Source: a plasmid. From it: a stretch of 64,000 nt of DNA. The stretch lies in NCBI RefSeq assembly GCF_054482525.1, contig NZ_JBTHVG010000007.1. One strand, given 5' to 3'. Positions 38,582-38,870 of this stretch are shown here, piece by piece. The notes beneath the pieces were generated by a model. The model was given only the letters and a program-made list of their open reading frames with translations. It had not been told where the DNA came from and did no database searches. Every line of letters begins with the position of its first letter. Position 1 is the stretch's first letter. Both the position numbers and the translations under genes were made by a program.

Positions 38582-38606
38582 AAAGGCGGGCCTGCGCCCG
38601 CCTCCA
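38582..38606 (-). terminator. hok terminator
   Basis: minus-strand GGCGGGCGCAGGCCCGCC hairpin followed by TTTT, just after the hok stop. Confidence 0.7.
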
Positions 38607-38611
38607 GGTTG

Positions 38612-38770
38612 CTACTTACCGGATTCGTAAGCCATGAAAGCCGCCACCTCCCTGTGTCCGTCTCTGTAACGAATCTCGCACAGCGATTTTCGTGTCAGAT
38701 AAGTGAATATCAACAGTGTGAGACACACGATCAACACACACCAGACAAGGGAACTTCGTGGTAGTTTCAT
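38612..38770 (-). CDS. hok: Hok/FlmA-family membrane toxin
   Basis: 52 aa [52 protein letters not shown]; below the 60-aa cutoff of the ORF track. Confidence 0.9.
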
Positions 38771-38828
38771 GGCCTTCTTCTCCTTGCGCAAAGCGCGGTA
38801 AGAGGCTATCCTGATGTGGACTAGACAT
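38616..38828 (-). CDS. mok: Mok (modulation of killing) overlapping reading frame
   Basis: 70-aa ORF overlapping hok in another frame, as in hok/sok loci. Confidence 0.6.
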
Positions 38829-38870
38829 AGGGATGCCTCGTGGTGGTTAATGAAAATTAACTTACTACGG
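38775..38870 (+). ncRNA. sok: Sok/FlmB antisense RNA (approximate)
   Basis: expected antisense to the mok/hok leader; boundaries not determinable by eye. Confidence 0.3.

Follow-up and report, generated by a model that had tools for sequence, protein, structure and literature searches.

An apparently intact hok/mok/sok locus of the plasmid R1 parB type next to psiA in an F-like leading region

Genes and transcripts of the hok/mok/sok locus

The plasmid DNA analyzed here (64,000 nucleotides of contig NZ_JBTHVG010000007.1, RefSeq assembly GCF_054482525.1; hereafter, the window) carries a hok/mok/sok locus at about 38505-38979, which we located by reading the sequence, from its ORFs, and with reagents designed for plasmid R1. 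The genes hok and mok lie on the minus strand, a strand left unnamed by an earlier sequence-only reading of the same DNA, and Sok is encoded on the plus strand. The hok/mok/sok (parB) locus of R1 (Gerdes and co-workers; PMC9841398, PMC1635323) is the prototype of type I toxin-antitoxin systems and of post-segregational killing, and the copy found here is an already known, textbook, and very widespread element of an ordinary kind. The sequence-only reading was right in calling it a post-segregational killing locus of this type, given the matches to the Pfam HOK_GEF and DUF5431 families and to the Rfam sok model, and right in placing it between a repeat split by IS100 (35907-37860) and psiA (39769..39050). 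The extent then proposed, 38582-38870, lies inside the locus but covers only part of it. It leaves out the hok promoter (38950-38979) and the initial 73 nt of the hok mRNA with tac, a metastable hairpin, and part of ucb, as well as the last 12 nt of Sok, fbi (38548-38557), and a terminator-like hairpin (38511-38542).

The hok promoter (38950..38979, minus strand) has a -35 box TGGTCA (38979-38974), an 18-bp spacer, and a -10 box TATGAT (38955-38950), and was found by a promoter scan with a 9/12 consensus match. The R1 hok promoter has the same -10 box, in which T-12, A-11, and T-7 were mapped by loss-of-function mutations (Le Rhun et al., PMC9841398), and its numbering places +1 at 38943, so that mRNA position n corresponds to 38944 - n in the window. 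The 5′ end is fixed at 38943 by the match of the R1 primer hokF. We take the full-length hok mRNA to be 398 nt long, as in the R1 literature, which would make it span 38546..38943 on the minus strand.

ORFs of at least 20 amino acids were listed over 38200-39100. The hok CDS (38770..38612 including the stop, minus strand; AUG at nt 174-176 and UAG at nt 330-332) is preceded by AGGAG (38780-38784, minus strand) and encodes 52 amino acids that match Pfam HOK_GEF (PF01848) with an E-value of 1.2e-21 and 76.5 bits, against a cut-off of 22. The 52-residue Hok ORF reported earlier is therefore present, and re-reading found neither a frameshift nor a premature stop in it; from an upstream TTG, the frame has 59 residues. 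The mok frame (38828..38616, minus strand; AUG at nt 116-118) encodes 70 amino acids that match Pfam DUF5431 (PF17496) across 70 of 70 profile positions (E = 2.6e-41), and its Shine-Dalgarno sequence, GAGG, lies at 38836..38839 (nt 105-108, minus strand), with G105 and A106 as in R1. Two earlier statements about these frames hold in part: hok was said to be nested within mok, and the overlap is nearly total, but the frames differ and the hok stop lies 4 nt past that of mok; a 60-residue cutoff was said to miss the ORF, which is true of hok but not of mok, whose 70 residues would pass.

Automatic annotation of these genes takes another form. RefSeq/PGAP gives Hok as a 126-nt, 41-residue CDS that starts at the GTG of Val12, equivalent to window positions 38612-38737, and is thus 11 residues shorter than the 52-residue Hok of the experimental literature. 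This shorter CDS is placed at 909-1034 in record L001, 7010-7135 in L002, and 5654-5779 in L003 (pEC5-2). Mok is either absent from the RefSeq/PGAP annotation or listed only as a "hypothetical protein," and Sok is missing from the plasmid gene tables that we compared, which carry no RNA genes.

The Sok promoter (38784..38812, plus strand) consists of a -35 box TTGCGC (38784-38789), a 17-bp spacer, and a -10 box TATCCT (38807-38812). Because it matches the consensus at only 7 of 12 positions, it was not called by the promoter scan and was placed by hand with the aid of the R1 reagents; the promoter and terminator scan, which did call the hok promoter, also missed both 3′ hairpins of the locus. 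The R1 reagents fix the Sok 5′ end 7 nt downstream of the -10 box, both hexamers are invariant in comparison with flm of F, and the -10 box overlaps dcb, in agreement with an R1 Sok-promoter mutation that falls within dcb (Le Rhun et al., PMC9841398). The Sok RNA (38819..38882, plus strand) is 64 nt long, as bounded by the matches of sokR, sokF, and the anti-Sok PNA-1, and has an 11-nt single-stranded 5′ tail, GACUAGACAUA (38819-38829), followed by a long stem-loop and a U-rich end. Both lengths are identical to those published for R1 Sok. The RNA folds with -26.5 kcal/mol (z = -6.6 for a near-identical stretch) and is complementary to nt 62-125 of the hok mRNA, including the mok Shine-Dalgarno sequence and AUG. 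Thus, the Sok promoter and RNA, which had been considered beyond delimiting by eye, could both be delimited from the R1 reagents, and the antisense promoter looked for upstream is present as TTGCGC-17-TATCCT.

The Rfam sok model (RF01794) matches 38944..38768 over model positions 1-157 of 157 and scores 88.9 bits (gathering score, 59; E = 1.5e-19). Since the match follows the hok-sense strand and stops at the hok AUG, what the model describes is the leader of hok, with Sok as its antisense RNA. No second hok-family gene (e.g., srnB-like) was found in the whole 64-kb window by phmmer over six frames or by Rfam.

Folding elements of the hok mRNA

The 398-nt hok RNA has a minimum free energy (MFE) of -175.9 kcal/mol (z = -8.25), and its predicted structure joins nt 1-7 to nt 390-396 and nt 9-10 to nt 387-388. 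The sequence-only reading had proposed a prediction of the fbi and tac folding elements as a check, and the predicted partners are indeed the 5′ tac element (38933..38943, nt 1-11, GGCGCUUGAGG, minus strand) and the 3′ fbi element (38548-38557, nt 387-396, CUGAAGCGCC, minus strand). In R1, mutating G4, C5, or U6 within tac abolishes toxicity (PMC9841398). The ucb element, or anti-Shine-Dalgarno of mok (38867..38875, nt 69-77, minus strand), carries A70, G71, C72, and C74 as in the R1 landmarks and pairs in the full-length MFE structure with nt 103-110, which include the mok Shine-Dalgarno sequence. Both the tac/fbi and the ucb/Shine-Dalgarno pairings persist in transcripts of 398, 400, 440, and 445 nt (ViennaRNA MFE). 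The first 30-40 nt of the mRNA alone fold into a 5′ hairpin of -13.7 kcal/mol (38915..38942, nt 2-29, minus strand), corresponding to the metastable hairpin of the nascent transcript, a concept described in PMC9841398. The dcb element (38802..38812, nt 132-142, AGGAUAGCCUC, minus strand), whose role is described in the same paper, is complementary to the mok Shine-Dalgarno region at nt 105-113; the resulting helix (nt 105-113 with nt 133-142) is seen by eye and is absent from the ViennaRNA prediction.

At the 3′ end, a stem-loop with a 9-bp GC-rich stem (38583..38604, nt 340-361, minus strand) is followed by T's to 38581. The R1 primer hokR matches 38583-38596, which places the 3′ end of the processed 361-nt mRNA at 38583, and in R1, mutating the stem bases G345 or C358 removes the truncated hok mRNA (PMC9841398). 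The GC hairpin with its TTTT run, described earlier as a terminator, is therefore real, but it belongs to the processed mRNA as its 3′ stem and is not simply a terminator. The fbi element sits 27-36 nt downstream of it and is followed by a second, terminator-like hairpin (38511-38542, nt 402-433, minus strand) with a U-rich tail to 38505. Lengthening the modeled transcript from 400 to 440 nt makes it 25 kcal/mol more stable, and this second hairpin may be the true hok terminator. It starts directly past the 3′ end (+398) given for the full-length mRNA in the literature.

We also compared the cost of opening the structure before and after 3′ trimming. The 361-nt RNA has an unconstrained MFE of -147.4 kcal/mol, and the published tac-stem (G4-C72, C5-G71, U6-A70) is absent from its predicted fold. 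Forcing this stem by constrained folding costs 12.2 kcal/mol in the full-length RNA and 0.2 kcal/mol in the 361-nt RNA, suggesting that the removal of fbi would make the open form energetically accessible, as the R1 model requires. These modeled energies support a refolding switch upon 3′ trimming.

Correspondence with R1 hok/sok and relatives

The comparison with R1 was made through published R1 coordinates and reagents, which together sample about 200 of 480 positions, and no difference was found at those positions. All 22 numbered R1 bases from PMC9841398 agree with the window (G4, C5, T6, G64, A70, G71, C72, C74, G105, A106, A177, T204, T208, T223, A227, G311, A320, T326, T330, G332, G345, and C358), as do all eight codon effects (K2E, C11R, V12G, L17P, M46I, and the synonymous changes at T18, E49, and a Gly codon). 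The oligonucleotides designed for R1 by Faridani et al. (PMC1635323) all match exactly: the 55-nt hok probe at 38612-38666, hokF at 38925-38943, hokR at 38583-38596, sokR (after its T7 G) at 38820-38839, sokF at 38861-38882, and the 11-mer PNA-1 at 38819-38829. The features that agree with R1 comprise the hok -10 box and +1, tac, ucb, the Shine-Dalgarno sequence and AUG of mok, both ends of Sok, dcb, Hok at all published codons, its stop, the 3′ stem-loop ending at +361, and the fbi complementarity. Judging from this sequence agreement, 38505-38979 is almost certainly a complete and undamaged type I toxin-antitoxin locus of the R1 parB type, and the sequence holds nothing that speaks to the contrary.

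Short ORFs arise often by chance, and IS150 disrupts the locus in the close relative pEC5-2, so one might suspect a fortuitous set of small ORFs with a hairpin, or a decayed remnant without function. We give this reading almost no weight, as the Pfam E-values are on the order of 1e-21 and 1e-41, the Rfam score exceeds the gathering score, the folding z-scores are -8.3 and -6.4, and the R1 reagents match exactly at a locus whose promoters, two ORFs, and RNA elements are all undamaged. The profile scores, together with the numbered R1 bases and the R1 oligonucleotides, rule it out.

A closer question is which allele of the system is present, given that flmA/flmB/flmC of the F plasmid (NC_002483, about 62.8-63.3 kb) lie at the corresponding site, flanked by psiA and the Frpo1 repeat, with the same orientation and architecture. 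Alignment to F flm, which had also been proposed as a check, showed two highly similar loci that diverge mainly in the Sok/target segment. No difference falls in tac, fbi, the two promoters, the 3′ stem-loop, or the hairpin downstream of it, whereas substitutions and two small indels cluster in Sok and its target at mRNA nt ~62-125; a 2-nt indel also lies ahead of fbi, and the sole difference in Hok is at residue 39, His in the window and Tyr in FlmA. The shared leading-region site adjoining psiA and the very similar flanks would favor an flm allele, but the clustering of differences, including two indels, precisely in the Sok/target segment, together with His39, speaks against it, as do the exact matches of the R1 oligonucleotides, among them the Sok tail PNA and the probe spanning the His codon. 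The FlmB/target sequence and the FlmA Tyr of NC_002483 are both absent here. We therefore regard the window copy as the R1 allele, and an F allele as very improbable.

The locus has many relatives. A 651-bp segment (38400-39050) matches at least 5,000 plasmid records; among the matches listed, at least 4,085 span 80% or more of the query and at least 1,434 have 99% identity or more. The listed matches are mostly conjugative plasmids of Escherichia, then of Klebsiella, Salmonella, and Shigella, and are annotated as "type I toxin-antitoxin system Hok family toxin." In pEC5-2 (NZ_CP060970, L003), otherwise 100% identical, IS150 (5888-7328) is inserted at the equivalent of window positions 38841-38845, or hok mRNA nt ~99-103. 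There it interrupts the Sok gene and also separates the hok promoter from the mok Shine-Dalgarno sequence, so a single insertion disables both toxin and antitoxin.

Leading-region setting and proposed role

The nic sequence of F, GTGGGGTGT directly followed by GGTGCTTT, has one exact occurrence in the window, on the plus strand at 33600-33616. We take cleavage to fall between these two parts and the T-strand to have as its first base the G that follows the cleavage site and to enter the recipient 5′ to 3′, as at the F oriT. This makes the plus strand of the window the T-strand and its higher coordinates the leading region. Elsewhere, Rfam hits mark the traJ leader together with FinP (32.7 kb), as well as antisense RNAs within traI (4.2 kb) and traG (13.5 kb). 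Beyond nic lie an SLT gene (33607-34209, plus strand), a DUF932 gene (35438..34506, minus strand), a 95-residue ORF (35732..35445, minus strand), and the left part of a repeat (35746-35906), which is separated from its right part (37861-~38351) by IS100 (35907-37860; 1,954 bp with IstA/IstB ORFs on the minus strand and a 5-bp duplication, CCGGG). The next gene upstream of hok is psiA (39769..39050, minus strand; PsiA E = 1.3e-38), and after it come psiB (40203..39766), DUF905 (40713..40480), and ssb (41320..40781), all on the minus strand, and a second repeat copy (41342-41703), 97% identical over 362 bp. The statement that hok is co-oriented with psiAB and ssb, with the transferred strand as template, is borne out, as the F nic is on the plus strand and all four genes are on the minus strand. 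The template of Sok is the non-transferred strand. A T-strand template alone does not imply that hok is transcribed from single-stranded DNA, since the gene has an ordinary duplex promoter of its own.

This arrangement resembles the F-like leading-region set, which has the single-stranded DNA promoters Frpo1 and Frpo2 and is transcribed from the T-strand (PMC9849209, PMC11541004). The order in the window is nic, the SLT gene on the opposite strand, homologues of ygeB and ygeA, an Frpo1-type repeat, hok/sok, psiA, psiB, DUF905, ssb, and an Frpo2-type repeat, and the T-strand is the template for all of these leading-region genes except the SLT gene. In F, Frpo1 and Frpo2 flank flm (Couturier et al., PMC9849209). 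FlmC/Mok forms family 16, with 2,672 members, which ranks among the gene families with the strongest enrichment in leading regions and is encoded in the T-strand orientation (Samuel et al., PMC11541004); this orientation of hok/mok is thus already documented on a large scale, in thousands of plasmids.

Unlike the F-like set, the window has its Frpo1-type hairpin interrupted by IS100 and lacks a large ParB-like gene between DUF905 and psiB. On the plus (transferred) strand, the restored repeat is predicted to form an imperfect hairpin of ~330 nt that resembles an Frpo1-type single-stranded DNA promoter upstream of the ygeA/ygeB homologues, and IS100 interrupts the left arm of this hairpin at a distance of about 25 nt from the apex. 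In F, deletion of Frpo1 cuts the transconjugant frequency to about 25% (PMC9849209), so the plasmid studied here may no longer express the two genes at 35732-34506 early. The Frpo2-type copy upstream of ssb, 97% identical to the split repeat, is intact. At window position ~40453, between DUF905 and psiB, about 1.8 kb is absent in comparison with F and p1658/97, a segment that holds most of the large ParB/RepB/Spo0J-like leading-region gene. Further along, 42067-42500 gave many staggered BLAST matches, with offsets of ~43 bp, to a single stretch of ~490 bp (10555-11045, probably of pEC5-2), which points to an array of tandem repeats immediately upstream of a SopB-like ORF (43619..42648), possibly a centromere of the sopC type.

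All the sequence elements of the R1 system are present at the locus, the 5′-3′ pairing is predicted, and the modeled energies support a switch on trimming; the mechanism that we propose is drawn from the R1 literature and carried over by sequence identity. A weak duplex promoter would produce a stable hok mRNA in which the 3′ fbi pairs with the 5′ tac while ucb buries the mok Shine-Dalgarno sequence, so that neither ribosomes nor Sok would bind the full-length mRNA. Slow exonucleolytic trimming from the 3′ end to the stem-loop at nt 340-361 would strip fbi, after which the 5′ end would refold and expose the mok start region. Sok, an unstable 64-nt product of the opposite strand, would then bind the exposed region through its 11-nt tail and block translation of mok and hence the coupled translation of hok, and RNase III would cut the duplex. 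If the plasmid is lost, Sok would decay first, the processed hok mRNA would be translated, and the membrane toxin Hok would kill the cell. By the same identity, expression of the locus, killing of plasmid-free segregants, and plasmid stabilization are to be expected here, and the killing induced by rifampicin and the cleavage of the duplex by RNase III presumably extend to this copy as well.

The locus might be intact and nevertheless be selected mainly for something other than the killing of segregants, such as the guarding of the leading region and perhaps also early establishment in the recipient. The repeats at 35746-35906 plus 37861-38351 and at 41342-41703, 97% identical over 362 bp, flank it, and recombination between them would delete hok/sok, psiA, psiB, and ssb and would kill the cell. 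The same idea was put forward for flm of F (PMC9849209), and the enrichment of the 2,672-member Mok/FlmC family 16 in leading regions, in T-strand orientation (PMC11541004), fits with it. In these papers, however, it stands as a proposal, and IS100 already parts the halves of one repeat and so alters the geometry of recombination. Moreover, this reading concerns the selective benefit and not the mechanism, as it needs the same post-segregational killing machinery. We consider it possible but hold it with reserve, and we keep segregant killing by the R1 mechanism as the leading interpretation of the locus.

A more speculative possibility, which we think unlikely, is that in the recipient hok-sense RNA is made from the T-strand before Sok, by read-through from the intact Frpo2-type single-stranded DNA promoter via ssb, psiB, and psiA. 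The geometry required is observed and the transcription is hypothetical; we saw no terminator on the minus strand in the interval from psiA to hok. Sok, by contrast, could be made only once the complementary strand has been synthesized. If this were true, the slow 3′ processing of the hok mRNA would act as a timer, so that a failed conversion from single-stranded to double-stranded DNA would kill the new host, while a successfully converted plasmid would addict the recipient from the first minutes. The paper PMC12672017 makes no mention of flm, a toxin, or psiA.

The importance of this copy beyond correct annotation is small; automatic annotation generally omits the exact coordinates of Sok, mok, tac, and fbi. 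For the biology of these plasmids, the locus has the appearance of a functional addiction module, and such a module helps explain why large IncF virulence and resistance plasmids are stably carried.
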